From assembly GCA_052327205.1 (NCBI GenBank), contig JBMRGM010000037.1:24800001-24837590 (forward strand): DNA of 37,590 nucleotides, given 5' to 3'. Origin of the DNA: Somniosus microcephalus. Taxonomy: Eukaryota. Under the pieces are notes generated by a model, which saw nothing but the letters and a program-made list of their open reading frames with translations, did not search any database and was not told the origin of the DNA. Positions 2,385 to 34,812 of the stretch are shown here, in pieces; position 1 is the first letter of the stretch; every line of letters starts with the position of its first letter. The translations under genes were made by a program, and so were the position numbers.

Positions 2385-2397
2385 TTTCCTCCCCCTT
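2385..2397 (-). other. Polypurine tract of Gypsy element 1
   Basis: Minus strand AAGGGGGAGGAAA, 2 nt before the LTR TGTTG. Confidence 0.85.
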
Positions 2398-6455: not shown

Positions 6456-6679
6456 TTTTTTTTTTAGTACTTTTTCCTCCACTTCGTTTGTTTTTCACAG
6501 CCCTTTTCCTCCCCTTCGTTTCATTGTATCATTACTCTCCCCCTTCTGATTTGTGTAACACCCGAACCTCCACCTTTACGAGGCGATTGCATCAGCCCTA
6601 AGCTGCCATTAAGAAAAGGCAGGAACTTCTTACTTTAAACATCGCCGATTCCAGTGCAAAATTATGCACAAGCCCGTCG

Positions 6680-6691
6680 TCCTCATCGCCA
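6680..6691 (-). other. Primer-binding site, tRNA-Ser(GCT)-like
   Basis: Minus strand TGGCGATGAGGA, 6 nt inside the 5' LTR. One mismatch to the complement of the vertebrate tRNA-Ser(GCT) 3' end ...TCCTCGTCGCCA. Confidence 0.75.
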
Positions 6692-6697
6692 GTTCTT

Positions 6698-6878
6698 TGT
6701 TGTGTCTCAAGGGGTTTTATATTGTATCTCAAGAGGGTTCATGCCCTTATCTATATAACGATTAAGAAGAACTTCAGGGTGGTGTATTTAGTTAATGGCC
6801 ATGTTTTGTACAGTCATGTAAATCACAACTACGGTATCCCCTGTGGACAATTCTAATACACAATCAAAATACACAACA
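6698..6878 (-). repeat. 5' LTR of Gypsy element 1 (181 bp, apparently chimeric)
   Basis: TGTTGTG...CACAACA termini; internal ~22-bp duplication at 6698-6743; diverged from the 3' LTR by substitutions and a ~40-bp indel. Confidence 0.85.
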
Positions 6879-9800
6879 GGTCTGATCACAGACTGGGTGT
6901 TTGACTGGTCCCGGGCGTGTGTCTGATCAGAGACTGGGTGTACGACTGCTCCTGGGGGTGTGTCTGATCACAGACTGGGTGTTTGACTGGTCCCGGGTGT
7001 GTGTCTGATCAGAGACTGGGTGTTTGACTGGTCCTGGGGGGTGCGTCTGATCACATACTGGGTGTTTGACTGGTCCTGGGGGTGGGTCTGATCACAGACT
7101 GGGTGTCTGATGTTCCTGGGGGTGGGTCAGATCACACACTGGGGCTTTGACATGTCCCGGGGGTGTGTCTGATCACAGACTGTGTGTTTGACTGGTCCCG
7201 GGGCTGTGTCTGATCACAGACTGGATGTTTCACTGCTCCCGGGATTGTGGCTGATCACAGGCTGGTTGTTTGTCCGGTCCTGGGGGTGTGTCTGAGCACA
7301 GACTGGTTATTTGACTGGTCCCGGGGGAGTGTCTGATCACAGACTGGGTGCTTGACTGGTCCCGGGAGTCAGTCTGATCACAGACTGGGTGTTTCACTGC
7401 TCTCGGGGTTGTGGCTGATCACAGGCTGGTTGCTTGTCTGGTCCCGGGGGTGTGTCTGATCAGAGACTGGGTATTTGACTGGTCCCGGGGGAGTGTCTGA
7501 TCACAGACTGGGTGTTTGGCTGGTCCCGGGGAGGGTCTGATCACAGACTGGTTGCTTGACTGGTCCCGGCAGTGGGTCTGATCAAAGACTGGGTGTTTGA
7601 CTGGTCCCGGGGCTGGGTCTGATCACAGACTGGATGTTTGACTCGTCCCGGGGGTGGTTCTGATCACAGACTGGTTGCTTGACTGGTGCCGGGGTTGGGT
7701 CTGATCACAGACTGGATGTTTGACTGGTCCCAGAGGTGGTTCTGATCACAGACTGGTTGCTTGACTGGTCTCGGGGGTGGGTCTGATCACAGACTGGGTG
7801 TTTGACTGGTCCCGAGGATGTGTCTGATCACAGACTGGATGGTTGACTGGTCCCGGGGTTGCGTCTGATCAGAGACTGGGTGTTTGACTGGTCCCAGGTG
7901 TGGGTCTGATCAGAGACTGGGTTTTCAACAGGTCCCGGGGGTGTGTCTCATCACAGACTCGGTGTATGACTGTTCACGGGCGTGAGTCTGATCACAGACT
8001 GGGTGTCTGACTGGTCCTGGGGGGATGTCTGATCTCAGACTGGGAGTTTGACTGGTCCCAGGGGTGGCTCTGATCACAGAATGGTTGTTTGACTGGTCCC
8101 GGGGGTGGGTCTGATCACAAACTGGTTGTTTGACTAGCCCGGGATCATGTCTGATCACAGATTGGGTGATTGTCTGGTCCCGAGGGTGGGTCTGATCACA
8201 GATTGGGTGTTTGATATTCCCGGGTGTGAGTCTGATCACAGACTGGGTGTTTGACTGGTCCTGGGGGAGTGTCTGATCACAGACTCACTGTTCGACTGTT
8301 CCCGTGTGTGTGTCCGATCACAGACTGTGTGATTGACTGATCCCCGGGGGGTCAGTCTGGTCTCAGACTGGGTGTTTGACTGGACCCGGGGATGTGTCCA
8401 ACAACAGACTGTGAGTTTGGCTGGTCCCAGGGGTCGGTCTGATCACAGACTGGGAGTTTGACTGGTCCTGAGTGTGTGCCTGATCACAGACCGGGTGTTA
8501 GACTGGTCCTGGGGGTCGGTCTGATCACAGACTTTTTGCTTGACTGGTGCTGTGGGTGGGGGGGGAGATCTGATCACAGTGTGTGTGTTTGACTGGTCCC
8601 GGGGGTGTGTCTGATCACAGACTGGGTGTCTGGCTGGTCCCGGGGTGGGTCTGATCACAGACTGGGTGTTTGACTGGTCCCGGGGGTGGGTCTGAACAAA
8701 GACTGGGTGTTTGACTGATCCCTGGGGTGGATCTGATCAAAGACTGGGTGTTTGACTGGTCCCAGGGGTGGGTCTGATCACAGACTGGGTGTTTGACTGT
8801 TCCCGGTGTTGGGTCTGATCACAGACTGGGTGTTTGACTGGTCCCGGGGGTGGGTTTGATCACAGACAGGGTGTTTGACTGGTCCCGGGGATGAGTCTGA
8901 CCACAGACTGGGTGTTTGACTGGTTCTGGTGGAGGGTCTGATCATAGTCTAGATGTTTGACTGGTCCCGGGGGTGTGTCTGATCGCAGACTGTCTGTTTG
9001 ACTGGTCCTGGTGGAGCTTCTGGTGACAGACTGGGTGTTTGGCTGGTCCCGGGAGTGGGTCTGATCAAAGACTGGGTGTGTGACTGGTCCCGGTGGTGGA
9101 TCTGATCATAGACTGGGTGTTTGACTGGTCGCAGGGGTGGGTCTGATCACAGACTGGTTGTTTGACTGGTCCCGGGTGTGGGTCTGATCGCAGACTGGGT
9201 GTTTGACTGGGCCCAGTTGTGTGTCTGATCACAGACCTGGGTGGTGGACTGGTCCCAGGGGTGGGTCTGATCACAGACTGCGTGTTTGACTGGTCCCGGG
9301 GGTGTGTCTGATCACAGACTGGATGTTTCACTGCTCCCGGGATTGTGGCTGATCACAGGCTGGTTGTTTGTCCGGTCCTGGGGGTGTGTCTGAGCACAGA
9401 CTGGTTATTTGACTGGTCCCGGGGGAGTGTCTGATCACAGGCTGGGTGCTTGACTGGTCCCGGGAGTCAGTCTGATCACAGACTGGGTGTTTCACTGCTC
9501 TCGGGGTTGTGGCTGATCACAGGCTGGTTGCTTGTCTGGTCCCGGGGGTGTGTCTGATCAGAGACTGGGTATTTGACTGGTCCCGGGGGAGTGTCTGATC
9601 ACAGACTGGGTGTTTGGCTGGTCCCGGGGAGGGTCTGATCACAGACTGGTTGCTTGACTGGTCCCGGCAGTGGGTCTGATCAAAGACTGGGTGTTTGACT
9701 GGTCCCGGGGCTGGGTCTGATCACAGACTGGATGTTTGACTCGTCCCGGGGGTGGTTCTGATCACAGACTGGTTGCTTGACTGGTGCCGGGGTTGGGTCT

Positions 9801-12800
9801 GATCACAGACTGGATGTTTGACTGGTCCCAGAGGTGGTTCTGATCACAGACTGGTTGCTTGACTGGTCTCGGGGGTGGGTCTGATCACAGACTGGGTGTT
9901 TGACTGGTCCCGAGGGTGTGTCTGATCACAGACTGGATGGTTGACTGGTCCCGGGGTTGCGTCTGATCAGAGACTGGGTGTTTGACTGGTCCCAGGTGTG
10001 GGTCTGATCAGAGACTGGGTTTTCAACAGGTCCCGGGGGTGTGTCTCATCACAGACTCGGTGTATGACTGTTCACGGGCGTGAGTCTGATCACAGACTGG
10101 GTGTCTGACTGGTCCTGGGGGGATGTCTGATCTCAGACTGGGAGTTTGACTGGTCCCAGGGGTGGCTCTGATCACAGAATGGTTGTTTGACTGGTCCCGG
10201 GGGTGGGTCTGATCACAAACTGGTTGTTTGACTAGCCCGGGATCATGTCTGATCACAGATTGGGTGATTGTCTGGTCCCGAGGGTGGGTCTGATCACAGA
10301 TTGGGTGTTTGATATTCCCGGGTGTGAGTCTGATCACAGACTGGGTGTTTGACTGGTCCTGGGGGAGTGTCTGATCACAGACTCACTGTTCGACTGTTCC
10401 CGTGTGTGTGTCCGATCACAGACTGTGTGATTGACTGATCCCCGGGGGGTCAGTCTGGTCTCAGACTGGGTGTTTGACTGGACCCGGGGATGTGTCCAAC
10501 AACAGACTGTGAGTTTGGCTGGTCCCAGGGGTCGGTCTGATCACAGACTGGGAGTTTGACTGGTCCTGAGTGTGTGCCTGATCACAGACCGGGTGTTAGA
10601 CTGGTCCTGGGGGTCGGTCTGATCACAGACTTTTTGCTTGACTGGTGCTGTGGGTGGGGGGGGAGATCTGATCACAGTGTGTGTGTTTGACTGGTCCCGG
10701 GGGTGTGTCTGATCACAGACTGGGTGTCTGGCTGGTCCCGGGGTGGGTCTGATCACAGACTGGGTGTTTGACTGGTCCCGGGGGTGGGTCTGAACAAAGA
10801 CTGGGTGTTTGACTGATCCCTGGGGTGGATCTGATCAAAGACTGGGTGTTTGACTGGTCCCAGGGGTGGGTCTGATCACAGACTGGGTGTTTGACTGTTC
10901 CCGGTGTTGGGTCTGATCACAGACTGGGTGTTTGACTGGTCCCGGGGGTGGGTTTGATCACAGACAGGGTGTTTGACTGGTCCCGGGGATGAGTCTGACC
11001 ACAGACTGGGTGTTTGACTGGTTCTGGTGGAGGGTCTGATCATAGTCTAGATGTTTGACTGGTCCCGGGGGTGTGTCTGATCGCAGACTGTCTGTTTGAC
11101 TGGTCCTGGTGGAGCTTCTGGTGACAGACTGGGTGTTTGGCTGGTCCCGGGAGTGGGTCTGATCAAAGACTGGGTGTGTGACTGGTCCCGGTGGTGGATC
11201 TGATCATAGACTGGGTGTTTGACTGGTCGCAGGGGTGGGTCTGATCACAGACTGGTTGTTTGACTGGTCCCGGGTGTGGGTCTGATCGCAGACTGGGTGT
11301 TTGACTGGGCCCAGTTGTGTGTCTGATCACAGACCTGGGTGGTGGACTGGTCCCAGGGGTGGGTCTGATCACAGACTGCGTGTTTGACTGGTCCCGGGGG
11401 TGTGTCTGATCAGACACTGGGTGCTTGACTGGTCCCGGGAGTTGGTCTGATCAGAGACTGGGTGTTTGACTGGTCCCTGGAGTGGGTCTGATCACAGACT
11501 GGGTGTTTGATGTTACCGGGTGTGTGTCTGATCACTGACTGTGTGTTTGACTGGTCCCGGGGCTGTGTCTGATCACAGACTGGATGTTTCACTGCTCCCG
11601 GGATTGTGGCTGATCACAGGCTGGTTGTTTGTCCGGTCCTGGGGGTGTGTCTGAGCACAGACTGGTTATTTGACTGGTCCCGGGGTAGTGTCTGATCACA
11701 GACTGGGTGCCTGACTGGTCCCGGGAGTCAGTCTGATCACAGACTGGGTGTTTCACTGCTCTCGGGGTTGTGGCTGATCACAGGCTGGTTGCTTGTCTGG
11801 TCCCGGGGGTGTGTCTGATCAGAGACTGGGTATTTGACTGGTCCCGGGGGAGTGTCTGATCACAGACTGGGTGTTTGGCTGGTCCCGGGGAGGGTCTGAT
11901 CACAGACTGTTTGCTTGATTGGTCCCGGCAGTGGGTCTGATCAAAGACTGGGTGTTTGACTGGTCCCGGGGCTGGGTCTGATCACAGACTGGATGTTTGA
12001 CTCGTCCCGGGGGTGGTTCTGATCACAGACTGGTTGCTTGACTGGTGCCGGGGTTGGGTCTGATCACAGACTGGATGTTTGACTGGTCCCAGAGGTGGTT
12101 CTGATCACAGACTGGTTGCTTGACTGGTCTCGGGGGTGGGTCTGATCACAGACTGGGTGTTTGACTGGTCCCGAGGGTGTGTCTGATCACAGACTGGATG
12201 GTTGACTGGTCCCGGGGTTGCGTCTGATCAGAGACTGGGTGTTTGACTGGTCCCAGGTGTGGGTCTGATCAGAGACTGGGTTTTCAACAGGTCCCGGGGG
12301 TGTGTCTCATCACAGACTCGGTGTATGACTGTTCACGGGCGTGAGTCTGATCACAGACTGGGTGTCTGACTGGTCCTGGGGGGATGTCTGATCTCAGACT
12401 GGGAGTTTGACTGGTCCCAGGGGTGGCTCTGATCACAGAATGGTTGTTTGACTGGTCCCGGGGGTGGGTCTGATCACAAACTGGTTGTTTGACTAGCCCG
12501 GGATCATGTCTGATCACAGACTGGGTGATTGTCTGGTCCCGAGGGTGGGTCTGATCACAGATTGGGTGTTTGATATTCCCGGGTGTGAGTCTGATCACAG
12601 ACTGGGTGTTTGACTGGTCCTGGGGGAGTGTCTGACCACAGACTCACTGTTCGACTGTTCGCGTGTGTGTGTCCGATCACAGACTGTGCGATTGACTGAC
12701 CCCCGGGGGGTCGGTCTGGTCTCAGACTGGGTGTTTGTCTGGACCCGGGGGTGTGTCCAACAACAGACTGTGAGTTTGGCTGGTCCCAGGGGTCGGTCTG

Positions 12801-15226
12801 ATCACAGACTGGGAGTTTGACTGGTCCTGAGTGTGTGCCTGATCACAGACCGGGTGTTAGACTGGTCCTGGGGGTCGGTCTAATCACAGACTTTTTGCTT
12901 GACTGGTGCTGTGGGTGGGGGGGGAGATCTGATCACAGTGTGTGTGTTTGACTGGTCCCGGGGGTGTGTCTGATCACAGACTGGGTGTCTGGCTGGTCCC
13001 GGGGTGGGTCTGATCACAGACTGGGTGTTTGACTGGTCCCGGGGTTGGGTCTGAACAAAGACTGGGTGTTTGACTGATCCCTGGGGTGGATCTGATCAAA
13101 GACTGGGTGTTTGACTGGTCCCAGGGGTGGGTCTGATCACAGACTGGGTGTTTGACTGTTCCCGGTGTTGGGTCTGATCACAGACTGGGTGTTTGACTGG
13201 TCCCGGGGGTGGGTTTGATCACAGACAGGGTGTTTGACTGGTCCCGGGGATGAGTCTGACCACAGACTGGGTGTTTGACTGGTTCTGGTGGAGGGTCTGA
13301 TCATAGTCTAGATGTTTGACTGGTCCCAGGGGTGTGTCTGATCGCAGACTGTCTGTTTGACTGGTCCTGGTGGAGCTTCTGGTGACAGACTGGGTGTTTG
13401 GCTGGTCCCGGGAGTGGGTCTGATCAAAGACTGGGTGTGTGACTGGTCCCGGTGGTGGATCTGATCATAGACTGGGTGTTTGACTGGTCGCAGGGGTGGG
13501 TCTGATCACAGACTGGTTGTTTGACTGGTCCCGGGTGTGGGTCTGATCGCAGACTGGGTGTTTGACTGGGCCCAGTTGTGTGTCTGATCACAGACCCGGG
13601 TGGTGGACTGGTCCCAGGGGTGGGTCTGATCACAGACTGCGTGTTTGACTGGTCCCGGGGGTGTGTCTGATCAGACACTGGGTGCTTGACTGGTCCCGGG
13701 AGTTGGTCTGATCAGAGACTGGGTGTTTGACTGGTCCCTGGAGTGGGTCTGATCACAGACTGGGTGTTTGATGTTACCGGGTGTGTGTCTGATCACTGAC
13801 TGTGTGTTTGACTGGTTTCGGGGGTGTGTCTGATCATAGACTGTATATTTGACTGGTCCCGGGGCTGTGTCTGATCACAGACTGTGTGTCTGGCTGGTCC
13901 CGGGGTGTGTCTGATCACAGACTGGGTGCTTGACTGGTCCTGGGGGTGCATCTGTTCAAAGGCTGGGTGTTTGACTGTGCCCGGTGGTGTGTCTGATCAC
14001 AGACACGGGAGTTTGACAGGTTCCGGTTGTGTGTCTGATCGCAGACTGTTTGTTTGACTGGTCCGGGGAGTGCATCTGATCACAGACTGGGTGTTTGACT
14101 AGTCCCCGGGGTGTATCATATCAGAGACTGGATGTTTGACTGTTCCCAGGTGCGGGTATGATCAAAAACTGGGTTGTTGACAGGTCCAGGGTGTATGTCT
14201 GTTAACAGACTCGGTGTTTGACTGGTCCTGGTTCTGGATCTGATCACAGACTGGGTGTGTGCGTGGTCCCAGGTGAATATCTGATCACAGACTGGGTGTT
14301 TGACTGGCCCCGGGTGAGTATCTGATCACAGACTGGGTGCTTCGCTGGTCCCGGGTGAGTATCTGATCACAGGCCAGGTGTTTGACTAGTCGCGGGGGTG
14401 TGTCCGATCACAGACTGTGAGTTTCACTGTTCGCGGGTGTGGGTCTGATCACAGACATTGTGTTTGACTGGTCCCGGGGGTTTGTCTGATCACAGACTGG
14501 GTGTTTGCGTTGTCCCGGGTGAATATCTGATCACAGACTGGGTGTTTGCGTTGTCCCGGGTGAATATCTGATCACACACTCGGTGTTTGACTGGTCCCGG
14601 GTGAGTATCTGATCACAGACTGGGTGTTTGACTGGTCCCGGGTGAGTATCTGATCACAGACTGGGTGTTTGACTGGTCCCGGGTGAGTATCTGATCACAG
14701 ACTGGGTGTTTGACTGGTCCCGGGTGAATATCTGATCACAGACTGGGTGTTTGACTGGTCCCGGGGGTTTGTCTGATCACAGACTGGGTGTTTGACTGGT
14801 CCCGGGTGAGTATCTGATCACAGACTGGGTGTTTGACTGGTCCCGGGTGAATATCTGATCACAGACTGTGTGTTTGACTGGTCCCGGGGGTGTGTCTGAT
14901 CACAGACTGGGTGTTTGCCTGGTCCCTGGTGAGTATCTGATCACAGACTGGGTATTTGACTGGTCCCGGGTGAGTATCTGATCACAGACCAGGTGTTTGA
15001 CTAGTCCCAGGTGTGTGTCCGATCACAGATTGTGAGTTTCACTTTTCGTGGGTATGTGTCTGATCACAGACTGTGTGTTTGACTGGTCCCGGGGGTGTGT
15101 CTGATCACAGACTAGGTGTTTGCGTGGTCCCTGGTGAGTATCTGATCACAGACTGGGTGTTTGACTGGTCCCGGGTCAGTATCTGATCACAGACCAGGTG
15201 TTTGACTGGTCCTGGGGGTGGGTCTG
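6879..15226 (+). repeat. ~41-bp satellite array, block 1
   Basis: Consensus GGTCTGATCACAGACTGGGTGTTTGACTGGTCCCGGGGGTG. Period 41 measured directly, e.g. TGATCACAG at 14651 and 14692. Confidence 0.97.
7190..13815 (+). repeat. Higher-order repeat: three near-identical tandem copies (2098 and 2261 bp spacing, ~51 and ~55 monomers)
   Basis: Marker CTGGATGTTTCACTGCTCCC at 7221, 9319 and 11580. Identical spurious 104-aa ORFs at 7925, 10023 and 12284. Confidence 0.95.
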
Positions 15227-16339
15227 TTTAAAGTGTTTTCCTTGAGAGATTTCCCTGAGGTTTCTCTCTCTAGAGGCCTCTTCCCTTGCACAGTAAACCT
15301 TGAGTGGTTGGACCCACTCGACCCTTAGATTCTGTACTCTGGCCTTAGGGGCAGGAACTACAATGTAGAGAAAACTCCTGTCGACCAAATTTGATGAAAC
15401 AAATTGAAATTTTATTGCATAAGGAAAAATATCAAATCAAATGCAAGCAGATAAGGGAGTACATGGGAGGGAAAAACACACAAACAAATCATAATGACAC
15501 AGTACTAACGAAATCAAATACAGGCATCTTATACACTACAACGATCATCATGAAATAAGGAAACACACGGAACATCGAGGGACAACAACTCATGTTAATT
15601 GTACCATTAAATCCACCCCCTTATTAAACCTGCCTAGATCTGATTCTGAAGGGCCAGAAACATGCTCACCAATCCCACTAGGAAGTGCACGGTTTTGAAA
15701 TCGAGTCTGTGTTTGGTCCTATCAGGTGTTTCGTCTCCAGGTGGATCGTGGAGCCCCTGCGAGCTGCGCCACCCCTCTCTCCTGAGGTGGGGGTCGGGGG
15801 TGGCTGGACACCGGTGGGCCTGGATGTCGGCGGGGTCGAGGATTGTCGGCTCGATCCTGGTTAGAGGAGCCTTGGGCTAGCTCCCATTGCTTCCTCAGTT
15901 TCCTTTTCTCTCTTCTCCCGAGCCGGGGTGACTGCAAGTTTCCTCCTCTTGTGGTTTTTATTTTTTTGTCTCTTCTTCCAAGTTGAGTCAATGGCCTCTC
16001 GTTCCGGCAACGGCCCGGGGATGGTCGATGATCTCCCGATGTGTTTCGGGAGGCTGGCTTCGAGATGCCCTTCTCGATGTTGGCTTTCTTTTTCCTCCTG
16101 CGAGTGCCTGCTTCCTCTGGCTGTGATTCAAACTCTCCACATTCCAGCTCTCTCTGGCTCCAAGCTTCTTTTCAACTCAGTAACTCTCCAAGCTTGCCCC
16201 AAATGCCGAAAATTCTCTCCAAATATACATTTCTCCCAGAAACTTCCGTCTCCCGCACAAAATCAGGTTCGTCTTTGTTTTACTTTTGGCAGGCTGGGAG
16301 CACAGTGGGGTAGTTATTATATTTTAAAATATCTTAAAC
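15227..16339 (-). mobile_element. Truncated duplicate of solo-LTR-like element A
   Basis: Highly similar to 18505-19626 with the same left satellite junction (GGGTCTG|TTTAAAG); right part missing. Confidence 0.75.
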
Positions 16340-18504
16340 AGACTGGGTGTTTGACTGGTCCCGGGTTTGGTTCTGATCACAGACTGGATGTTTGACTGGC
16401 CCCGGGGGTGTGTCCAGTCACAGACTGTGAGTTTGACTGTTGGCTGGTGTGTGTCTGATCACAGACTTGGTGTTTGCCTGGTCCCGGGGGAGGGTCTGAT
16501 CACAGACTGGGTGTTTCACTGGTCCTGGGGGTGTGTCTGATTACAGACTGGGTGTTTGACTGCTCCCGGGGGGTGACTGATCAGAGACTGGATGACTGAC
16601 TGGACCCGGGGGTGGCTCTGATCACAGACTGGGTGTTTGACTGGTCCCGGTGGTGGGTCTGATCACAGACTGGGTGTTTGACTGGTCCCGAGGGTGTGTC
16701 TGATCACAGACTCGGTGTTTGATTGTTCGTGGGTGTGTGTCTGAACACAGAATGGGTGTTTGACTGGTCCCAGGGGGTGTCTGATCAGAGACTGGATATT
16801 TCAATGGTCCCGGGGTTGGGTCTGATCACAGACTGGGTGTTTGACTGGTCCCGGGTTCGGGTCTGATCACAGACTGGGTGTTTGACTGGTCCCGGGTTCG
16901 GGTCTGATCACAGACTGGGTGTTTGACTGGTCCCGGGGGTGTGTCCAGTCACAGACTGTGAGTTTGACTGTTGGCTGGTGTGTGTCTGATCACAGACTGG
17001 GTGTTTGCCTGGTCCCGGGGGTGGGTCTGACCGCAGACTGGGTGTTTCACTGGTCCTGGGGTTGTGTCTGATTACAGACTGGGTGTTTAACTGGTCCCGG
17101 GGGGGCGACTGATCAGAGTCTGGATGATTGACTGGTCCCGGGGGTGGCTCTGATCACAGACTGGGTGTTTGACTGGTCCCGGTGGTTGGTCTGATCACAG
17201 ACTGGGTATTTGGTGCTCCCGGGGGTGGGTCAGATCAGAGACTGGGTGTTTGATGCGTCCCGGGGGTGTGTCTGATCACAAACTGGGAGTTTGACTGGTC
17301 CCGGGGGTGTGATTGATCACAGATTGTGTCTCTGGCTGGTACCGGGGTGGGTCTGATCACAGACTGGGTTTTTGACTGGTCATGGGGTTGTGTCTGATCA
17401 CAGACTGGGTGTTTGACTGGTCCTGGGGGTGCATCTGTTCAAAGACTGGGTATTTGACTGTTCCCGGGGATGAGTCTGATCACAGACTGGGTGTTTGACT
17501 GGTCCTGGTGGAGGATCTGATCATAGACTAGGTGTTTGACTGGTCCCGGGGTTGGGTCTGATCAAAGACTGGTTGTTTGAATGGTCTCGGGGGTGGGTCT
17601 GATCACAGACTGGGGGTTTGACTTGTCCCGGGTGTGTCTCTGAACACAGACTGGGTGATTGACCGGTCCTGGTGGTGGGTCTGGTCACAGATTGGTTGTT
17701 TGACTGGTCCCGGTGGTGGGTCTGATCATAGACTGGGTGTTTGACTGTGACCGGTGGTGTGTCTGATCACAGACACGGGAGTTTGACAGGTTCCGGTTGT
17801 GTGTCTGACCGCAGACTGTTTGTTTGACTGGTCCGGGGAGTGCATCTGATCACAGACTGGGTGTTTGACTAGTCCCCGGGATGTATCATATCAGAGACTG
17901 GATGTTTGACTGGTCCCAGGTGCGGGTCTGATCAAAAGCTGGGTTGTTGACAGGTCCCGGGTGTATGTCTGATGACAGACTGGGTGTTTGACTGGTCCCG
18001 GGTGTGGGTCTGATCACAGACTGGGTGTTTGACTGGTCCCGGGTGTGGGTCTGATCACAGACTAGGTGTTTGACTGGTCCCGGGTGTGGGTCTGATCACA
18101 GACTGGGTGTTTGACTGGTCCCGGGTGTGGGTCTGATCACAGACTGGGTGTTTGACTGGTCCCGGGTGAGTATCGGATCACAGACTGGGTGTTTGACTGG
18201 TCCCGGGTGAGTATCTGATCACAGACTGGGTGTTTGACTGGTCCCGGGTGAGTATCTGATCACAGACCAGGTGTTTGACTAGTCCCGGGTGTGTGTCCGA
18301 TCAAAGACTGTGAGTTTCACTTTTTGTGGGTGTGTGTCTGATCACAGACTGTGTGTTTGACTGGTCCCGGGGGTGTGTCTGATCACAGACTGGGTATTTG
18401 CGTGGTCCCTGGTGAGTATCTGATCACAGACTGGGTGTTTGACTGGTCCCGGGTGAGTATCTGATCACAGACCAGGTGTTTGACTGGTCCTGGGGGTGGG
18501 TCTG
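16340..18504 (+). repeat. ~41-bp satellite array, block 2
   Basis: Same monomer. The start matches 20392 onward, and 17751 onward matches 13981 onward. Confidence 0.97.
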
Positions 18505-20056
18505 TTTAAAGGGTTTTCCTTGAGAGATTTCCCTGAGCTTTCTCTCTCCAGAGGCCTCTGTCTCTTGCACAGTAAACCTTGAGTGGTTGGACCCACTCAA
18601 CCCTTAGATTCTATACTCTGGCCTTAGGGGCAGGAACTACAATGTAGAGAAAACTCCTGTCGACCAAATTTGATGAAACAAATTGAAATTTTATTGCATA
18701 AGGAAAAATATCAAATCAAATGCAAGCAGATAAGGGAGTAGATGGGAGGGAAAAACACACAATCAAATCATAATGACACAGTACTAACGAAATCAAATAC
18801 AGGCATCTTATACACTACAAAGATCATCATGAAATAAGGAAACACACGGAACATCGAGGGACAACAACTCATGTTAATTGTACCCTTAAATCCACCCCCT
18901 TATTAAACCTGCCTAGATCTGATTCTGAAGGGCCAGAAACATGCTCACCAATCCAACTAGGAAGTGCACGGTTTTGAAATCGAGTCTGTGTTTGGTCCTA
19001 TCAGGTGTTTCGTCTCCAGGTGGATCGTGGAGCCCCTGCGAGCTGCGCCACCCCTCTCTCCTGAGGTGGGGGTCGGGGGTGGCTGGACACCGGTGGGCCT
19101 GGATGTCGGCGGGGTCGAGGATTGTCGGCTCGATCCTGGTTAGAGGAGCCTTGGTTTGGCTCCCATCGCTTCCTCAGTTTCCTTTTCTCTCTTCTCCCGA
19201 GCCGGGGTGACTGCAAGTTTTCTCCTCTTGTGGTTATTATTTTTTTGTCTCTTCTCCCAAGTTGGGTCGATGGCCTCTCGTTCCGGCACCGGCCCGGGGA
19301 TGTTCGATGATCCCCCGATGTGTTTCCCCGGGGTGGGACGCCGGCTTCGAGATGCAATTCTCGATGTTGGCTTTCTTTTTCCTCCTGCGAGTGCCTGCTT
19401 CTTCTGGCTGTGATTCAAACTCTCCACACACCAGCTCTCTCTGGCTCCAAGCTTCTTTTCAACTCAGTAACTCTCCAAGCTTGCCCCAAATGCCGAAAAT
19501 TCTCTCCAGATACACCTTTCTCCCAGAAACTTCCGTCTCCCGCACAAAATCAGGTTAGTCTTTGTTTTACTTTTGGCAGGCTGGGAGCACAGTGGGGTAG
19601 TTATTATATTTTAAAATATCGTAAACGGCCGGTAAAAGCCCATCTCTGGTCTGGAATTACCTTCATTGTTTTTAATGTCCTGCTAATCTCGTTATCTAGT
19701 CCTGGGTGCTGTTCTCATGAATATGAAATTGTTCCCTTTTGTCTGGGTCAACATTTTGATGGCCTCTGTCTCTAGGGCGATCTTGACTGGATCTGCATCT
19801 AATCCATATGCATACGTGTGGGTCTGCTTTCGTTCTCTCAGAAATGGCTTCCAGAACTTGCTGTAGGTTGAATGCACAAAGCTGTCTGAGGTTGCGCAGG
19901 AACCATTTTAAATGTCCCAATAAGCTGGTCACAGGGTATGGCAGCCATTTTGTATGCCCCTTTTTCTGGGCTTCTTTTTATAACAGTCTTTGAAATCATG
20001 GCCTCTTCTGCCATTTGAACCTTATTAATAAAAAGTCCATTTTTGCGAATCCTACA
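18505..20056 (-). mobile_element. Solo-LTR-like element A (1552 bp; ERV or Gypsy unresolved)
   Basis: Flanked by a 4-bp direct repeat TCTG (18501-18504, 20057-20060). Right end ...CCTACA; left end TTTAAAGG (TG presumably mutated). Minus-strand AATAAA at 18690-18695 and splice donor TG|GTGAGC at 18943-18950. No recognisable protein. Confidence 0.7.
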
Positions 20057-23000
20057 TCTGATCACATAATGGGTGTTTGATGTTCCCGGGGGTGGGTCTG
20101 ATCACAGGCTGGGTCTTTGACCGGTCCCGGGGGTGTGTCTGATCACAGACTCGGTGTTTGACTATTCGTGGGTGTGTGTCTGATCACAGAATGGGTGTTT
20201 GACTGGTCCCGGGGTTCGGTCTGACCACAGATTGTGAGTTTGCTTGTTCGCGGGTGTGTGTCTGATCACAGACTGGGTGTTTGACTGGTCCTGGGGGTAT
20301 GTCTGATCACAGACTTGGTGTTTGACTGGTCCCAGGGGGTGTCTGATCAGAGACTGGGTGTTTCAATGGCCCCGGGGTTGGGTCTGCTCACAGACTGGGT
20401 GTTTGACTGGTCCCGGGTTTGGTTCTGATCACAGACTGGGTGTTTGACTGGTCCCGGGGGTGTGTCCAGTCACAGACTGTGAGTTTGACTGTTGGCTGGT
20501 GTGTGTCTGATCACAGACTTGGTGTTTGCCTGGTCCCGGGGGTGGGTCTGATCACAGACTGGGTGTTTGACTGGTCCTGGGGGTGGGTCTGATCACAGAC
20601 TGGATGTTTCACTGGTCCTGGGGGGGTGTCTGATTACAGACTGGGTGTTTGACTGGTCCCGGGGGGGTGACTGATCAGAGACTGGATGACTGACTGGTCC
20701 CGGGGGTGGCTCTGATCACAGACTGGGTGTTTGACTGGTCCCGGTGGTGGGTCTGATCACAGACTGGGTGTTTGGTGTTCCTGGGGGTGGGTCAGGTCAG
20801 AGACTGTGTGTTTGATTGGTCGCGGGGGTGTGTCTGATCACAAACTGGGAGTTTGACTGGTCCCGGGGGTGTGTCTGATCACAGATTGTGTGTCTGGCTG
20901 GTACCAGGGTGGGTCTGATCACAGACTGGGTTTTTGACTGGTCACGGGGTTGTGTCTGATCACAGACTGTGTGTTTGACTGGTCCCGGGGGTGTGTCTGA
21001 TCACAGACTGAGTGTTTGACTGTTCCCGGGGTGTGTCTGATCACAGACTGGGTGTCTGGCTGGTGTCGGGGTGGGTCTGATCACAGACTGGGTGTTTAAC
21101 TGATCCCGGATGTGGGTCTGATCAAAGACTGGGTGCTTGACTGATCCCAGGGGTGAATCTGATCACAGACTGGGTGTTTGACTGGTACCGGTGGTGTGTT
21201 TGATCACAGACTAGGTGTCTGGCTGGTCCCGGGGTGGTTCTGATCACAGACTGGGTGTATGACTGGCCCCGGGGGTGGATCTGATCAAAGACTGGGTGTT
21301 TGACTGATCCCGGGGGTGGATCTGATCAGAGACTGGTTGTTTGACTGGTCCCAGGGGTGGGTCTGATCAAAGGCTGGGTGTTTGATTGGTCCCGGTGGTG
21401 GGTCTGATCAGAGACTGGGTGTTTGACTGGTCCCGGGGGTGGATCTGATCACAGACTGGGTGTTTGACTGGCCCCGGGGTTGTGTCTGATCACAGACTGG
21501 GTGGTTGACTGGTCCCCGGGGTGCGTCTGATCATAGACTGGGTGATAGACTCGTCCCGGGGATGAGTCTGACCATAGACTGGGTGTTTGACTGGTTCCGG
21601 TGGAGGGTCTGATCATAGACTAGATCTTTGACTGGTCCCGGGGGTGGGTCTGACCACAGACTGGGTGTTTGACTGGTTCTGGTGGAGGGTCTGATCATAG
21701 TCTAGATGTTTGACTGGTCCCGGGGGTGTGTCTGATCGCAGACTGTCTGTTTGACTGGTCCTGGGGGAGCGTCTGATCACAGACTGGGTGATTGACTGGT
21801 CCTGGGGGTGGGTCTGATCAAAGACTGTGTGTTTGACTGGTCCCTGTGGTGGATCTGATCATAGACTGGGTGTTTGACTGGTCCCGGGGGTGGGTCTGAT
21901 CACAGACTGGGTGTTTGACTGGGCCCAGTTGTGTGTCTGATCAAAGGCCCGGGTGTTGGACTGGTCACAGAGGTGGGTCTGATCACAGACTGCATGTTTG
22001 ACTGGTCCCGGGGGTGTGTCTGATCAGGGACTGGGTGTTTGACTGGTCCCAGGAGTTGGTCTGATCACAGACTGGGTGTTTGACTGGTCCCGGGAGTGGG
22101 TCTGAACACAGACTGGGTGTTTGATGATACCGGGTGTGTGTCTGATCACAGACTGTGTGTTTGACTTGTCCCGGGGGCGTGTCTGATCATAGACTGTGTG
22201 ATTGACTGCTCCCGGGGCTGTGTCTAATCACAGACTGGGTGTCTGGCTGGTCCCGGGGTGTGTCTGATCACAGACTGGGTGTTTTGACTGGTCCCAGGGG
22301 TGTGTCTGTTCAAAGACTGTGTGTTTGACTGTTCCCGGGGATGAGTCTGATCACAGACTGGGTGTTTGACTGGTCCCGGTGGAGGGTCTGATCATAGACT
22401 AGGTGTTTGACTGGACCCGGGGTTGGGTCTGATCACGGACTGGGTGTTTGCCTGGTCCCGGGGGTGTGTCTGATCACAGACTGGGTGTTTGACTGGTCCC
22501 GGGGCTTGTCTGATCACAGACTGGGTGTCTGGCTGGTGCCGGGGTGGGTCTGATAACAGCCTGTATGTTTGACTGGTCATGGGTGTGGGTCTGATCTAAG
22601 ACTGTGCGTTTGACTGGTCCCGGGGGTGTGTCTGATCACAGAGTGGGTGTTTGACTTGTCCCGGTGGTGTTTCTGACCATAGACTGGTTGTTTGACTGGT
22701 CCCGGGGGTTGATCTGATCACAGACTGGTTGTTTGATTGTTCCCAGGGGTGGGTCTGATCACAGAATTGGTGTTTGACTGGGCCCAGAGGTGGGTCTGAT
22801 CACAGACTGGGTGATTGAGTGGTCCTGGGGGTGGGACTGATCACATACTGTGTGTTTGACTGGTCCCGGTGGTGTGTCTAATCACAGATTGTGTGTTTGA
22901 CTGGTCCTGGGGAGGCGTCTGATCACAGACTGGGTGTTTGACTGGTCCCGGGGGTGGCTATGATCACAGCCTGGGTGTATGACTGACACGGGATTGTGTC

Positions 23001-25171
23001 TGATCACATACTGGGTGTTTGTCTGGTCCCAGGAGGGTATCTGATCACAGACTGGGTGTTTGACTGGCCCCGGGGATGTGCGTGATCACAGAACGGGTGT
23101 TTGACTAGCCCGGGATCATGTCTGATCACAGACTTGAGTATGTCTGGTCCCGGGGGTGTGTCTGATCACAGACTGGGTGTTTGATGTTCCCGTGATTGTG
23201 TCTGATCACAGACTGGGTGTTTGACTGGTCCCGGGGGAGGGTCTGATCACAGATTGGGTGTATGACTGGTCCCGGGGTTCGGTCTGATCACAGACTGGAT
23301 GTTTGACTGGTCTCAGGGGTGTGTCCGAACACAGACTGCGAGTTTGACTGTTTGCGGGTGTGTGTCTGATCACAGACTGGGTGTTTGACTGGTCCCGGGG
23401 GAGGGTCTGATCACAGACTGGTTGTTTGACTGGTCCTGGGGTGTGTCTGATTACAGACTGGGTGTTTGACTGGTCCCGGGGGGGTGTCTGATCAGAAACT
23501 GCATGTTTGGCTGGTCCCGGGGGTGGGTCTGATCTCAGACTGGGTGTTTGACTGGTCCCGGGGGTGGGTCTGATCACAGACTGGGTGTTTGATGTTCCCG
23601 GGGGGGGTCAGATCACAGATTGGGTGTTTGACTGGTCCCGGGTATGTGTCTGATCACAGCCTGGTTGTTTGACTGATCCCGGGGGCATGTCTGATCACAG
23701 ACTGAGTGTTTGACTGGTCCCGGGGGTGTGACTGATCACAGACTGGGTGTCCGCCTGGTACCTGGGAGGGACTGATCACAGACTGGGTGTTTGACTGGTC
23801 ACAGGGTTGTGTCTGATCACAGACTGGGTGATTGACTGGTCCCGGGGATGTGTCTGATCACAGGCTGGGTGTTTGACTTGTCCCGGGGGTGTGTCTGATC
23901 ACTGACTGGGTTTCTGGCTGGTACCGGGGTGGGTCTGATCAGAGACTGGGTGTTTGATTGGTCACGGGGTTTGGCCTGATCAAAGAATGTGTGTTTGACT
24001 CGTCCTGGGGGTGATACTGATCACAGACTGGGTGTTCGACTGGTAACGGGGAGGTGTCTGATCACAGACTGGGTGTTTGACTTCAGACTGGTTGTTTGAC
24101 TTGTCTTGGAGGTGTTTCTGATCGTAGACTGGGTGCTTGACTGGTCCTGGGGGTGGGTCTGATCACAGACTGGTTGTTTGACTGGTCCCGGAGGTGGGTC
24201 TGATCACAGACTGGGTGCTTGACTGGGCCCGGTGTTGTTTCTGATCATAGACTGGTTGTTTGACTGGTCCCGGGGGTGGGTCTGATCACAGACTGGGTGT
24301 ATGACTTGCCCGGGAATGTGTATGTTCACAGACTGGGTGTTTGTCTGGTCCCGGGTGTGTGTCTGATCACAGACTGTGTGTTTGACTGGTCCCGGGGGTG
24401 GGTCTGATCACAAATCGGTGTTTGACTGTTCGCGGGTTTGTTTCTGATCACAGACTGGGTGTTTGACTGTTCCAGGTGTCGGTCTGATCACAGACTGGGA
24501 GTTTGACTGATCCCGGGTGTATGTCCGACCACATATTGTGAGTTTGACTGTTCGCGGGTGTGTGTCTGATCATATATTATATGGTTGACTGGTCCCGGCG
24601 GGTGTCTGATCAGAGACTGGGTGTTTGACCGGTCCCGGGGTTGGGTCTGATCACGGACTGGGTGTTTGACTTGCATGGGATCATGTCTGATCACAGACTG
24701 GGTTTTTGTCTGGTCCCGGGGGTGTGTCTGATCACAGACTGGGTGTTTGATATTCCCGGGGGTGGGCCTGATCACAGACTGGGTGTTTGATTGATCGCAG
24801 GTTTATGTCTGATCGCAGACTGGGTGTTTGACTGTTCCCGGGTGTCGGTCTGAACACAGACTGGGTGTTTGTCTGGTCCTGGGGGTGTGTCCAATCACAG
24901 ACTGTGAGTTTGACTGTTCACGGTAGTGAGTCTCACCACAGACTGGGTGTTGGACTGGTCCTGTGGGTGTGTCTGATCACAGACTGGATGTCTGACTGGT
25001 CCCGGGGGTGTGTCTGATCAGAGATTGGGTGTTTGACTGGTTCTGGGGGTGGGTCTGGTCACAGACTGGGTGTTTCATGTTCCCGGGGGTGGGTCAGATC
25101 TCAGATTGGGTGTTTGACTGGTCCCGAGGATGTGTCTGATCACAGACTTGATGTCTGTCTAGTATCGGGGT
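20057..25171 (+). repeat. ~41-bp satellite array, block 3
   Basis: Same monomer throughout. Confidence 0.97.
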
Positions 25172-26862
25172 TGGAGCGGTGCTGTCGCACAACTTCTCGG
25201 ACGACTCAGAGAGGCCAATATCCTTTACGTCACGATCACTAACCTCAGCCGAGCGTAACTACGCCCAGATTGAAAGGGAGGCCCTCAGCCTAGTGTGTGG
25301 AGTGAAAAAGTTCAATCACTATCTGCACGGGCAGAAGTTCACCTTGCTGACTGACCACCAACCACTTGTCTCCATCTTTATCCAAAGAAGGGCGGTCCGG
25401 TGATGACTGTGCAACGGCTACAAAGATGGTCCCTTTTTCTAGTGGCGCACCAATATGAAATCGAGAATAAGGGCACGATAAAGCATGGAAAGGCTGATGT
25501 GCTATCAAGCCTGCCACTGCCTACTGTGGAGGAAGCACCAGCAGTGGATCCTGTCGAAATATTTCATTCGACTATAATTGAATGCTTGTCAGTAAATAAC
25601 GCTGGTATAGAGAAGGAGACCAGAAATGACCCGACACTGTCTCGGGTATATGAATTGACGGTGAAGGGATGGCCAGCACATGGCGACTCACTGTTGCCAG
25701 CATTCTCATCCAGAAGAGAACAGCTGTCAGTATGCCAGGGGACCTTGATGTGTGGAACCCGAGTGGTAATTCCACCCAAGTTAAGGGAGAGAGTGCTCAA
25801 TGAGCTTCACCAAGGTCATCCGAGAGGGGTGAAAATGAAAAGCCTTGCTAGGGCTTATGTGTGGTGGCCGGGAATCGATCAGCAAATCGAGGACCTGACA
25901 AAAAGCTGCTCAGGATGCCAGAAGGCCCAAAATGCACTACCACATGCCCCTCTACACCCATGGGAGTGGCCCTCATCTCCATGGCAACGGGTGCATATTG
26001 ATTTTGCTGGTCCATTCATGGACTCAATGTTGTTAATAGCCGTGGATGCGCACTCGAAATGGCCTGAGGTGATCAAAATGTCCTCCACCACCACGGAGAA
26101 AACTATTGCAGTCCTATGGGCCATTTTTGCCAGAGCAGATTTGCTCTGATAACGGACCACAGTTTGTGTCCGAAGAGTTTCGATGATTTATTAAAAGGAA
26201 TGGGATAAAGCATTACACATCTGCCCCGTATCATCCAGCCACAAATGGATTGGCTGAGACGTTCGGACAAATCTTTAAGAAGGCAATAAAGGCTATGTAC
26301 AATGACAACATTCCGCTGCAGCACAAGGTGGACAATTTCCTGTTCTCCTACCGGAATGCGACACATGCAGTCACCAACCAGGCCCCAGCCATAATGTTCT
26401 TTAACCGAAGGTTAAGATCTCGCCTGGATTTGCTCAGACCAAACGTATGAAGGGATGTTGAGAGTAAGCAATTCCAGCACATCCATGAGAAGCCAACATG
26501 GAGCTTCAATGTAGGGCAACCAGTCTTGCCCGCTACTACCGAACAGAAAAATGGCAGCCAGGAACGATATGCACACGGCAGGGCCCATTAATGTACACAG
26601 TGGACGTTGGGGAGAGCATCGTGAGATGCCATGCTGACCAGATCCTAGAGTCACAGAAACAAGTCAACCCATGCCTCGCCCATACGCACCTGGTGGTGAA
26701 CCTGACGTACAGGTAGCATCTACCCCAGAAACAGTAGCATCGGAAGCTGATGAACCAACCGACGACAGGGGGCCAGAATTGCCTCCGCACCAAGAGCAGG
26801 ACACTCGGGAAAGGCGCTATGCGGAAAGGATCAGGAAGCCTCCACAAAGACTGAATTTATAA
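25167..26862 (+). pseudogene. pol fragment (RNase H and integrase), frameshifted
   Basis: [30 protein letters not shown]...WWPGID...CSGC, RVHIDFAGP, VDAHSKWPEV, SDNGPQF, NGLAE; C-terminus RRYAERIRKPPQRLNL*. Confidence 0.92.
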
Positions 26863-26957
26863 ATATACTATTTTTAGCTAATGTTGCATGTTAAAAGTGT
26901 TAATTTTAATTAGTTTGATATTTAATTGTTAAATGAGTGTTATGGTACTGTTAATCT

Positions 26958-26970
26958 AAAAGGGGAGGAA
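26958..26970 (+). other. Polypurine tract of Gypsy element 2
   Basis: AAAAGGGGAGGAA, 1 nt before TGTAATG. Confidence 0.85.
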
Positions 26971-26971
26971 T

Positions 26972-27184
26972 TGTAATGTATTTGCCTTTAAGGGGAGAAC
27001 TACTTTTTACAGCTCCTGTATACTGTAGTACCTTCAGTGATCACACCTGTTTATAAACCCTGAGTAGTGATCTGTAAAATTAGTTCTAGATTAACCCTCA
27101 TTCAGTAAACACCTGTGAAATCGCTCCCTGCAGCATGTTGTCTGATTATTGAAGGACACAACATTAAGAAACACGGATCTAACA
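26972..27184 (+). repeat. 3' LTR of Gypsy element 2 (213 bp)
   Basis: TGTAA...TAACA termini following the PPT; TATAAA near 27052 and AGTAAA near 27104. Confidence 0.82.
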
Positions 27185-30100
27185 GGTCTAATCAAAGACT
27201 GGGTGTTTGACTGGTCCCGGGGGTGCGTCTGATCACAGACTGGGTGTTTGACTTCAGACTGGGTGTTTGACTTGTCCCGGTGGTGCTTCTGATCGTAGAC
27301 TGGGTGCTTGACTGGTCCTGTGGGTGGGTCTGATCACAGACTGGGTGTATGACTGGCCCAGGAATGTGTATGATTACAGACTGGGTGTTTGTCTGGTCCC
27401 GGGTGGGTGTCTGATCACAGAATGTGTGTTTGACTGGTCCCGGGGGTGGGTCAGATCACAAATCGGTGTTTGACTGTTCGCAGGTTTGTTTCTGATCACA
27501 GACTGGGTGTTTGACTGCTCCAGGTGTCGGTCTGGTCACAGACTGGGTGTTTGACTGATCCCGGGTGTATGTCCGACTACATATTGTGAGTTTGACTGTT
27601 CGCGGGTGTGTGTCTGATCATAGACTATATGTTTGACTGGTCCCGGCGGGTGTCTGATCAGAGACTGGGTGTTTGACCGGTCCCGGGGTTGGGTCTGATC
27701 ACGGACTGCGTGTTTGACTTGCATGGGATCATGTCTGATCACAGACTGGGTTCTGGTCTGGTCCCGGGGGGGTGTCTGATCACAGACTGGGTGTTTGGTA
27801 TTCCCGGGGGTGGGTCTGATCACAGACTGGGTGTTTGATTGTTCGCAGGTTTATGTCTGATCGCAGATTGGGTGTTTGACTGTTCCCGGGTGTCGGTCTG
27901 ATCACAGACTGGGTGTTTGTCTGGTCCCGGGGGTGTGTCCAGTCATAGACTGTGAGTTTGACTGTTCATGGGTGTGTGTCTGAACACAGACTGGGTGTTT
28001 GACTGGTCCTGGGGGTGTGTCTGATCACAGACTGGATGTCTGACTGGTCCCGGGGGTGTGTCTGATCAGAGATTGGGTGTTTGACTGTTCCCGTGGGTGG
28101 GTTTGATCACAGACTGGGTGTTTTACTGGTCCCGGGAGTGGGTCTGGTCACAGGCTGGGTGTTTGATGGTCCCGGGGGTGGGTCAGATCACAGACTGGCT
28201 GTTTTACTGGTCCTGGGTGTGTGCCTGATCACAGATTGGGTGTTTGACTAGTCCCGGGGATGTGTCTGATCACAGACTTGGTGTCTGGCTAGTATCGGGG
28301 TGGGTCTTTTCACAGACTCGGTGTTTGATGTTCCCGGGGGTGGGTCAGATCACAGACTGGGTGTTTGCCTGGTCACGGGGTTGTGTCTGATCACAGACTT
28401 GGTGTCTGGCTAGTATCGGTGTGGGTCTTTTCACAGACTCGGTGTTTGATGTTCCCGGGGGTGTGTCTGATAACAGACTGGGTGCTTAACTGGTCCCAGG
28501 TGAGTATCTGATCACAGACTGGGTGTTCGATTGGTCCCGGGTGAGTATCTGTTCACAGACTGGGTGTATGACCGGTCCCGGAGTTGTGTCTGATCACAGA
28601 GTGGGTGCTTGACTGGTCCGAGGAGTGGGTCGGATCACAGACTGGGTGTTTGACTAGCCTGGGATCATGTCTGATCACAGCCTGGGGGTTTGTCTGGTCC
28701 CGGGGGTGTGTCTGATGACAGACTGGGTGTTTGATGTTCCCGTGGGTGGGTCTGGTCACAGACTGGGTGTTTGACTTGTTCCGGGGGTGTGTCTGATCAC
28801 AGACTCGGTGTTTGACTGTTCGTGGGTGTGTGTCTGGTCACAGACTGGGTGCTTGACTGGTCCCAGGGGTCGGTCTGATCACACACTGGTGTTTGACTGG
28901 TCTCGGGGGGGTGTCTGCTCATAGAATCGGTGTTTGACTGGTCCGGGGGTTGGGTATGAACAGAGACTGGTTGTTTGACTGGTCCCGGGGGTGGGCCTGA
29001 TCACAGACTGAGTGTTTGACTGCGCCTGGTGGTGGGTCTGATCGTAGACTGGGTGTTTGACTGGTCCCGAGCGTGGGTCTGATCAGAGACTGGTTGATTC
29101 ACTAGTCGCGGGGATGTGTCTGATCACAGACTGTCTGTTTGAAGGTCCTGGGGGTGTGACTGATCACAGACTGGGAGTTTGACTGGTCTCGGAATGTGTC
29201 TGATCAAAGACTGGGTGTTTGACAGGTCCCGGGGGTGCATCTGATCACAGACTGGGTGTATGACCAGTCCCGGAGTTGTGTCTGATCACAGAGTGGGTGC
29301 TTGACTGGTCCGAGGAGTGGGTCTGATTACAGACTGGGTTATTGAATAGCCTGTGATCATGTCTGATCACAGACTGGGTGTTTGTCTGGTCCCGGGGGTG
29401 TGTGTGATCACAGACTGAGTGTCTGGCTTGTCCCGGGGTGGGCCTGATCACAGACTGTCTGTTTGACTGGTCCCGCGGGTGTGTCCGATCACAGACTGTG
29501 AGTTTCCCTGTTCGGGGGTGTGTGTCTGATCACAGACTTTGGTATTTGACTGGTCCTGGCGGTGTGTCTGATCAAAGACTGGGTGTTTGACTGGTCCCGG
29601 GGGTGGGTCTGATCACAGACTGGGTGTTTGATTTGTCCCGGGGCTGGATCTGATCATAGACTGGGTGTTTGACTGGTCCGGGGATGGGTCTGATCAAAGA
29701 CTGTGTATTTGAAGTCCCCGGGGTTGGGTAAGATGACAGACTGGACGTTTGACTCGCCCCGAGGTTGTGTCTGATCACAGACTGTGTGTTTGACTGGCCC
29801 CGGGGGTGGGTCTGATCAAAGACTGGATGTTTGACTTGTCCCGGGCTTGGGTCTGATCACAGACTGGATGTTTGACTGGTCCAGGTGGTAGGACTGATCG
29901 TAGACTGAGTGTTTGACTGGTCCCAGGGGTGTGTCTGATCACAGACTGGGTGTTTGACTGGGCCTTGTGGTGGGTCTGATGATAGACTGGGGGTTTGACT
30001 GGTCCCGAGGGTGGGCCTTATAACAGACTGGTTGAATGACTGGTCAAATTGGTGTGTCTGATCACAGACTCGGGTGTTTGACTGGTCCCGGGGGTGGGTC

Positions 30101-33100: not shown

Positions 33101-34727
33101 CTGACTGGTCCCGGTGGTGTTTCTGATCACAGACTGCGTGTTTGACTGGTCTCAGAGGTGGGTCTGATCACAGACTGGGTGTTTGACTGGTCCCAGGGGA
33201 GTGTCCGATCACAGACTGGGAGTTTCACTCTTCGTGGCTGTGTGTCTGATCACAGACTGATTATTTGACTGGTCCTGGCGGTGTGTCTGATCAAAGACTG
33301 GGTGTTTTTCTTGTCCCGGGGTGATGTCTGATCACAGACTGGGTGTTTGACTGGTCCCGGGCGTGGGTCTGATCACAGACTGGGTATTTGGCTGGTCCTG
33401 GGGGTGTGTCTGATCACAGACTGGGTGTTTGACTGGTCCCAGGGATGTGTCTGATCAGAGACTGGCTGCTTGACTGGTCCCGGGGGTGGGTCTGATCACA
33501 TAGTGGGTGCGTAGCTGGTCCTGGGGTGGTTCTTATCACAGGCTGGGTGTTTGACTGGTCCTGGGAGTGTGTCTGATCAAAGACTGGGTGTTTGACTGGT
33601 CCCGGGAGTGGGTCTGATCACAGACTGGGTGTTTGATTGGTCGCCGTGGTGGATCTGATCAAAGAATGGGTGTTTGAGTGGTCCCGGGGTTCGGTCTGAT
33701 CACAGACTGGGTGTTTGATTGGTCCCAGGGTTGAATCTGATCACAGACTGGGTGTTTGATTGGTCCCCGTGGTGGATCTGTTCAAAGAATGGGTGTTTGA
33801 CTGGTCCCGGGGTTCAGTCTGATCACAGACTAGTTGTTTGACTGGTCCCAGGGGCGAGTCTGATCACAGACTGGGTGTTTGACTGGTCCCGGGCCTGGGC
33901 CTAATCAAAGACTGGGTGTTTGACTGGTGCCGGGGTGTGTCTAATCACAGATTGTGTGTTTCACTGTTCCAGGGGTGCGTCTGATCACAGACTGGGTGTT
34001 TGACTGGTCCCAGATGTGGATATGATCAAAAATTGGGTGTTTGACTGGTCCTGGGGGTGTGTCTGATCACAGACAGGGTGTTTGACTGGTCCCGGGGGTG
34101 GGACTGATCAGTGACTGGGTGTTTGACTGGTCCTGGGGATGTTTCTGATCACAGACTGGGTGTTTGACTGCTCCCGGGTGTGTGATTGGTCACAGACTGC
34201 TGTTTGCCTGGTCCCGGGGGCGGTGTCTTATCACAGACTGCGTGTTTGACTGGTCCCAGTGATGTGTCTGATCACAGACTCGTTGTTTGACTGGTCCCGG
34301 GTGTGTGACTGGTCACAGACTGGGTGTTTGACTGGTCCTGGTTGTGTGTCTGATCACAGACTGGGTGTTTGACTTGTCCCTGGGTGTGTCTGATCACAGA
34401 CTGTTTGTTTGACTGGTCCCAGGGGTGGGTTTGATCACAGACTGGGTGTTTGACTGGTCCCAGGTGTGGGTCTGATCAAAAACTGGGTGTTTGACTGGTC
34501 CCGGGGATGTGTCTGATCACAGACTGTGTGTTTGACTGGTCCCGTGTGTGTGACTGTTCACGGACTGGGTGTTTGACTAGTTCCGGGGGGCGTTTCTGAT
34601 CACAGACTGGGTGTTTGACTGGTCCCGGGTTGTGTCGGATCACAGACTGGGTGTCTGACTGGTCCCGGGGGTGGGTCTGATCACAGACTGGGTGTTTGAC
34701 TGGTCCCAGTGTTGCGTTTTATCACAG
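27185..34727 (+). repeat. ~41-bp satellite array, block 4
   Basis: Same monomer, more heterogeneous; contains older kb-scale duplications; ends ...TTATCACAG. Confidence 0.97.
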
Positions 34728-34812
34728 TGTATTGCGTTTTGGTTTGGGGTTTTGTGACTGGCCAGTCAGTCGTATCTGATCTGCACCAGCCCCATGTGGT
34801 TCGAATCACTTC
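34728..34812 (-). mobile_element. Left piece of LTR-like element C (diverged relative of A)
   Basis: Begins TGTA where the satellite stops. TGCAC...GTGGTTCGAATCACT aligns with A's TGCAC...GTGGTTGGACCCACT (12/15) at a similar distance from the end. Confidence 0.45.

Follow-up and report, generated by a model that had tools for sequence, protein, structure and literature searches.

LTR retrotransposons that target satellites or centromeres, such as the plant CRM elements and Arabidopsis Tal1, are concentrated in satellite DNA. The locus described here resembles these cases in that LTR elements lie inside satellite arrays, but the families involved have thousands of dispersed copies and single array hits.

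Integration hotspots at exact positions have been described for HIV-1 in Alu repeats, where they are intrinsic to the integrase (PMC10547254). The likeness to our case is that the repeat offers one near-ideal target and that exact positions, not their surroundings, are favoured (PMC10547254). The two systems differ in that we deal with several endogenous Gypsy families, a short tandem satellite and 11 old genomic insertions read from sequence alone. Recurrence at one repeat position, as expected for a system of the HIV-1/Alu type, was found for seven of these 11 insertions (five of seven when only perfect target site duplications, TSDs, are considered), and the same context was favoured outside the repeat in the one family for which it was measured. 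With regard to target sequence, retroviral integrases favour A-philic sequence at the joining sites (PMC9410886) and plant LTR retrotransposons prefer weak palindromes (PMC6911290). Our elements share with both a weak symmetric motif around the TSD, with CC/GG-rich cores being favoured here. A-philicity itself has been shown for retroviruses (PMC9410886), while our evidence consists of CC/GG steps rather than an energy profile. In Drosophila, repeated independent insertion at one target site results from insertion-site preference (PMC5932611). There as here, site preference leads independent events to the same motif, but that report concerns tandem dimers of the same family at one locus, whereas in our case different families share the same phase in different monomers. 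A literature search, conducted mostly at the level of listed titles, turned up no report of Gypsy elements inserting in phase into a short satellite of a vertebrate.

The satellite family and its phase-32 insertions

The window is a stretch of 37,590 nucleotides from contig C37 of a 6.45-Gb vertebrate assembly. It contains a GC-rich array of a 41-bp satellite (6879..34727 on the forward strand, with the end at about 34727; detected with TRF), in which about 23 kb of satellite (23,235 bases by mask) are split by three large interruptions and which contains internal block duplications. Phase 1 of the monomer was set at the initial G of GTCTG in the TRF consensus, and the dyad GTCTG-ATCA-CAGAC occupies phases 1-14 with its axis at 7.5. 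Copies of the canonical 41-mer are few: an exact 59-mer has 40 occurrences in the genome, which all fall within a single array (C37:30.9-31.0 Mb), and among the DNA matches listed the canonical satellite is confined to three arrays. An 18-bp sister satellite, which has no dyad, lines up with the latter half of the 41-mer. Its arrays are located on C37 (18.03-18.04, 27.63-27.67, 42.03-42.12, 42.88-42.97 and 44.01-44.12 Mb) and C40 (31.99-32.00 Mb), and mixed variants with a 42-bp unit are found at C37:37.3 Mb, C39:2.0 Mb and C40:45.88-45.93 Mb. Within this satellite family, the 41-mer seems to be a derived unit. Eleven regions with the 41-bp satellite or its relatives were fetched, several of the arrays in part, and their large interruptions were read; more arrays of the family are present on contigs C39, C73 and C245.

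Seven out of 11 independent two-sided Gypsy insertions with 5-bp TSDs duplicate monomer positions 32-36 (CCGGG or a variant), three of them in 41/42-bp arrays and four in the 18-bp sister satellite, and the remaining four lie at phases 24, 25, 34 and 1. The only consensus CpG of the monomer is located inside this hot TSD. The seven phase-32 insertions are distributed over five arrays, come from two or more unrelated lineages whose LTRs show no similarity, and occur in both orientations. Three same- or related-family pairs among them face opposite ways, which argues for independent events. Perfect TSDs are present in five of the seven, and the other two (3/5 matches) were placed by eye. When only insertions with perfect TSDs are counted, five out of seven are still at phase 32 (P below 1e-3 in all additive target models).

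Several inserts were left out of the 11, namely duplicates of K2, of element A (see below) and of a 1,277-bp Gypsy fragment, the LINE-like inserts, and three unclassified inserts of 1,578, 926 and 699 bp. The one-sided junctions (Gypsy 1, Gypsy 2, M2, the edges bRedge and C40Ledge, and the 1,277-bp fragment) were also omitted, as were two array edges at phase 32 for which no partner LTR could be located. Since three of the omitted one-sided or unverified junctions, together with bRedge, are at phase 32, this exclusion biases the count against the hotspot.

Array entry and target preference outside the satellite

The sequence-only reading had suggested that the array acts as a sink in which LTR families are enriched. 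This part of it is contradicted by our counts. None of 29 other loci each for Gypsy 1, Gypsy 2, element A and element C is in satellite (0/116, the loci being best sequence matches and not a random draw), and six of these 116 carry a single chance mask of 30-34 bases. Likewise, none of 30 loci of the K3 family lies in satellite. The density of Gypsy pol clusters is no higher inside than outside, with 26 raw clusters (12 after duplicates were collapsed by hand) in 511 kb of satellite versus 24 in 488 kb of flanking DNA, where clusters were not de-duplicated, and a 50-kb degenerate array contains no large inserts. A genome-wide pattern search for LTR-like ends no more than 30 bp away from the satellite core had eight matches, all at four known junctions; this pattern required an exact 15-base core, missed the right end of element A and is not exhaustive. 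The combination of an A-family end with the satellite core, a pattern without positive control, gave no match, and junction-spanning DNA queries returned no second satellite junction among the matches listed (42/42 for one query, the best 150 of 410 for another). Junction patterns for the 18-bp sister satellite mostly matched internal variants and were used for finding arrays, not for counting junctions. Dispersed family ends found by pattern, by comparison, number 15,574 for K3, 7,619 for G2 and 2,163 for M1, the latter two with a filter whose retention is roughly three quarters. A DNA search with the K3 LTR gave no candidates, probably on account of the abundance of this family. This is not a satellite-targeting system, as neither of the two tests showed enrichment.

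Target models were trained on off-satellite flanks only (103 flanks representing 72 events in four families). In off-satellite targets the first base of the TSD is not T, the ends are rich in G/C, and the positions two and three bases out favour A and C. CC/GG steps amount to 0.72 per TSD versus 0.47 under a column-shuffle null (p = 0.0006). In the logistic model, the four highest-ranking of the 41 phases are 24, 32, 3 and 41, all of which were observed as hit; with the mononucleotide model, phase 32 moves between ranks 3 and 15 depending on flank width. The additive and logistic models predict 0.5-1.2 of 11 insertions at phase 32. For at least seven of 11 insertions to share a phase, the models give a probability of no more than about 2e-4 (about 1e-3 when the upper bootstrap bound is used), and for the logistic model the phase-32 excess has P of about 5e-5, up to 1e-3 under bootstrap.

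The hot context is also favoured away from the arrays. At least three M1-family ends outside arrays carry the exact hot 7-mer versus 0.06-0.09 expected (32-47x, lower 95% bound 7-10x), and at least eight are within one mismatch of the hot 8-mer versus 0.46-0.57 expected (14-17x). These counts come from one family only, with the best 20 of 40 scored ends and an estimated denominator of about 1,330, and some of the targets may themselves be repeats. Two off-satellite M1-family insertions (L380 and L383) have similar sequence downstream, a hint that a further dispersed repeat may have a position hotspot of its own. The CCGGG pentamer as such is about 2x enriched in the G2 family (nine of about 3,500 ends versus a background of 0.125%) and is absent from the 46 listed outer flanks of the M1 family, counted by eye. 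With illustrative phase shares as for a 30-50x preference (0.2/0.33 and 0.3/0.45), seven of 11 would be reached at P = 0.007-0.05 (intact 7-mers only).

We consider it probable that phase choice is set by the ordinary local preference of Gypsy integrases and is repeated by the tandem array, with no excess entry into the array. LTR elements enter these arrays no more frequently than the DNA around them; an integrase near the DNA would then select its site locally, and the tandem repeat would turn a modest preference into one dominant phase. Such a preference would be non-additive, in that a C/G-rich self-complementary core combined with the favoured half-site two and three bases out would let one site per monomer win. 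Runs of CC/GG are A-philic, and their A-form propensity might be a plausible physical cause. Generic preference would largely explain the phase-32 bias, and a residual array-specific effect may remain. If this explanation is true, short satellites are natural target-choice assays for integrases, and the preferences of vertebrate Gypsy integrases are sharper than a TSD logo suggests and non-additive. It would also be a caution that coincident junctions in a satellite are not evidence of targeting.

An alternative that we regard as rather unlikely is that the array itself contributes. Phased nucleosomes, a bound protein or CpG state would form a funnel that leads unrelated integrases to a single base more strongly than their generic preference does. 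Equally improbable in our judgement is the more specific form of this proposal, in which positions 32-36 with the sole consensus CpG are a base-exact entry point that draws unrelated Gypsy lineages to a degree well above their generic preference, owing to a structure or chromatin state particular to the array and conserved among the 18-, 41- and 42-bp units. The phase-32 excess over every fitted generic model is consistent with a funnel, as are the use of the hot site in all three unit lengths and the lack of any hit among the 11 at phase 31, the symmetric alternative one base to the left. However, the same context is favoured outside satellites, and the differing unit lengths would speak against one nucleosome register. 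CpG as the cause was rejected, as it carries no positive weight off the satellite (5/103 TSDs versus nine distal, negative model coefficient). If a funnel did operate, the arrays would provide a rare base-resolution readout of the effect of satellite chromatin or structure on integration.

It is very unlikely that array duplication, the replacement of elements or a small sample, rather than seven independent events, produced the phase-32 cluster. Array inserts do duplicate (K2 and element A are each present twice and one LTR fragment 14 times), the number of insertions is small and two of the seven TSDs are imperfect, but duplicates were collapsed before counting. Moreover, the distribution of the seven over arrays, lineages and orientations, and the persistence of the cluster among perfect TSDs (both given above), argue against such an artefact.

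Window junctions and the dyad

The window had drawn attention through four LTR-end junctions, read as independent hits on one dyad in the monomer. Three of them (Gypsy 1, Gypsy 2 and element A) are placed as described and that of element C is not, leaving n=3. Gypsy 1 (2185..6878, minus strand) is a degenerate gag-pol element with RNase H and integrase, whose LTRs (2185-2382 and 6698-6878) are only 78-82% alike. It has no TSD, the far flank being CTTAC, though its family makes 5-bp TSDs (three pairs), and it is likely a recombinant of two family members. The adjoining GGTCT (6879..6883, plus strand) represents a one-sided junction at phase 41. Gypsy 2 (25170..27184, plus strand) encodes RNase H and integrase, followed by a PPT and a 3' LTR (26972-27184); its end at 27184 is also followed by GGTCT at phase 41, and the junction is one-sided because the 5' side of the element is deleted. 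The two ends at 6878 and 27184 are indeed in the same register, both TSDs starting at phase 41. The elements also belong, as proposed, to different families in opposite orientation, with no LTR similarity and pol DNA that is 66-71% identical. Pfam analysis of ten window ORFs revealed rve, H2C2, RNase H and zinc knuckle domains only. Since the top ranks of the logistic model include phase 41, the coincidence of Gypsy 1 and Gypsy 2 is explained without a role of the dyad, and this phase likely represents a second, weaker favoured site.

Element A (18505..20056, minus strand) is a solo long LTR of 1,552 bp from a dispersed family with 4-bp TSDs, and is ERV-like by its length and TSD. The duplication of TCTG (18501..18504, plus strand, and 20057-20060; phase 2) is real, and it makes element A the sole LTR insertion of the window with both TSD copies. 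Its family has a perfect 4-bp TSD at at least eight of 29 other loci (read by eye). The element starts with TTT where the family norm is TGT; a start two bases earlier with a 2-bp TSD is ruled out by the 4-bp TSD of the family. A truncated copy (15227..16337) is 96% identical and has the same left flank. Its right end is a deletion breakpoint, and it is a duplicate rather than an independent insertion.

Element C (34813..36160, plus strand) is a solo LTR of a dispersed family with 4-bp TSDs, has the flanks CTTC and ATTC, and is located outside the array. It had been taken to start directly after ATCACAG (34727) on the other arm of the dyad. A start at 34728 is ruled out, as the 39 other matches all start between query positions 79 and 86 (about window position 34813), which is 85 bp past the last clear monomer. 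The intervening 85-bp spacer (34728..34812, plus strand) is separate from the element and weakly satellite-like, being at best decayed satellite (its score was reached by 35/2000 shuffles).

Three junctions would all fall on the dyad by chance with a probability of (15/41)^3 = 0.049, before correction for the post-hoc choice of the dyad. Among 13 phased LTR junctions in 41/42-bp arrays (phases in the 42-bp variant array were set by eye), six touch the dyad (phases 41, 41, 2, 3, 1 and 38) versus 5.7 expected, and the others are at phases 32 (four junctions), 24, 25 and 34. Outside the window, where the dyad was first noticed, the count is three out of ten versus 4.4 expected, and among two-sided insertions it is two out of eight. 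The TSD centres of the three window junctions are at phases 2, 2 and 3.5 versus the dyad axis at 7.5, none being centred. The dyad as a shared landing pad with the array as a sink for LTR families is thus already refuted at the available n and barely credible: all three valid window junctions overlap its left arm, three further junctions elsewhere, one- or two-sided, also touch it (phases 1, 3 and 38) and phases 41 and 3 are high in the generic model, but element C is misplaced, the dyad is hit no more than expected outside the window or in two-sided insertions, the window TSDs are off its axis, the arrays show no LTR enrichment and the 18-bp sister satellite, without a dyad, is also a target. 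What stands of the phased landing pad is the phasing itself and a phase common to several families; the dyad and the sink fall away. Generic target bias with no array enrichment, which the sequence-only reading itself had named as speaking against it, is largely what was found, and a residual excess may remain.

Duplication and spread of the arrays

Within the window, the satellite blocks flanking Gypsy 2 (24020-25165 and 27185-28310) are diverged duplicates, the left block having no insertion, and the blocks in 6880-13800 recur at a spacing of about 2.1-2.3 kb. On C37 (42.05-44.06 Mb), a higher-order unit has been amplified that combines the 18-bp satellite with the 1,277-bp fragment, which is the 3' part of a Gypsy element, and with a LINE-like piece of 1.24 kb; the fragment is present in 14 copies across three arrays. 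At C40 45.884-45.956 Mb, the 50-kb degenerate array is inverted relative to a canonical array, with a 6-kb LTR element of the C family between them that carries a nested solo LTR within its 3' LTR. Near-identical non-satellite edges are common to the arrays at C37:18.0, C37:27.6 and C40:32.0 Mb and to those at C37:37.3 and C39:2.0 Mb, indicating that these arrays spread by segmental duplication together with their flanks.

A dispersed repeat at loci L199-L205 (contigs C2, C3, C8 and C23) has a match of about 16-40 bases to the satellite core near an apparent LTR boundary, which possibly reflects a shared origin, or chance. Finally, a 2.36-kb LINE-like insert lies inside the dyad in three duplicated copies (C37 30.985-31.003 Mb), outside the junction counts given above, and the remaining LINE-like inserts are spread over various phases.
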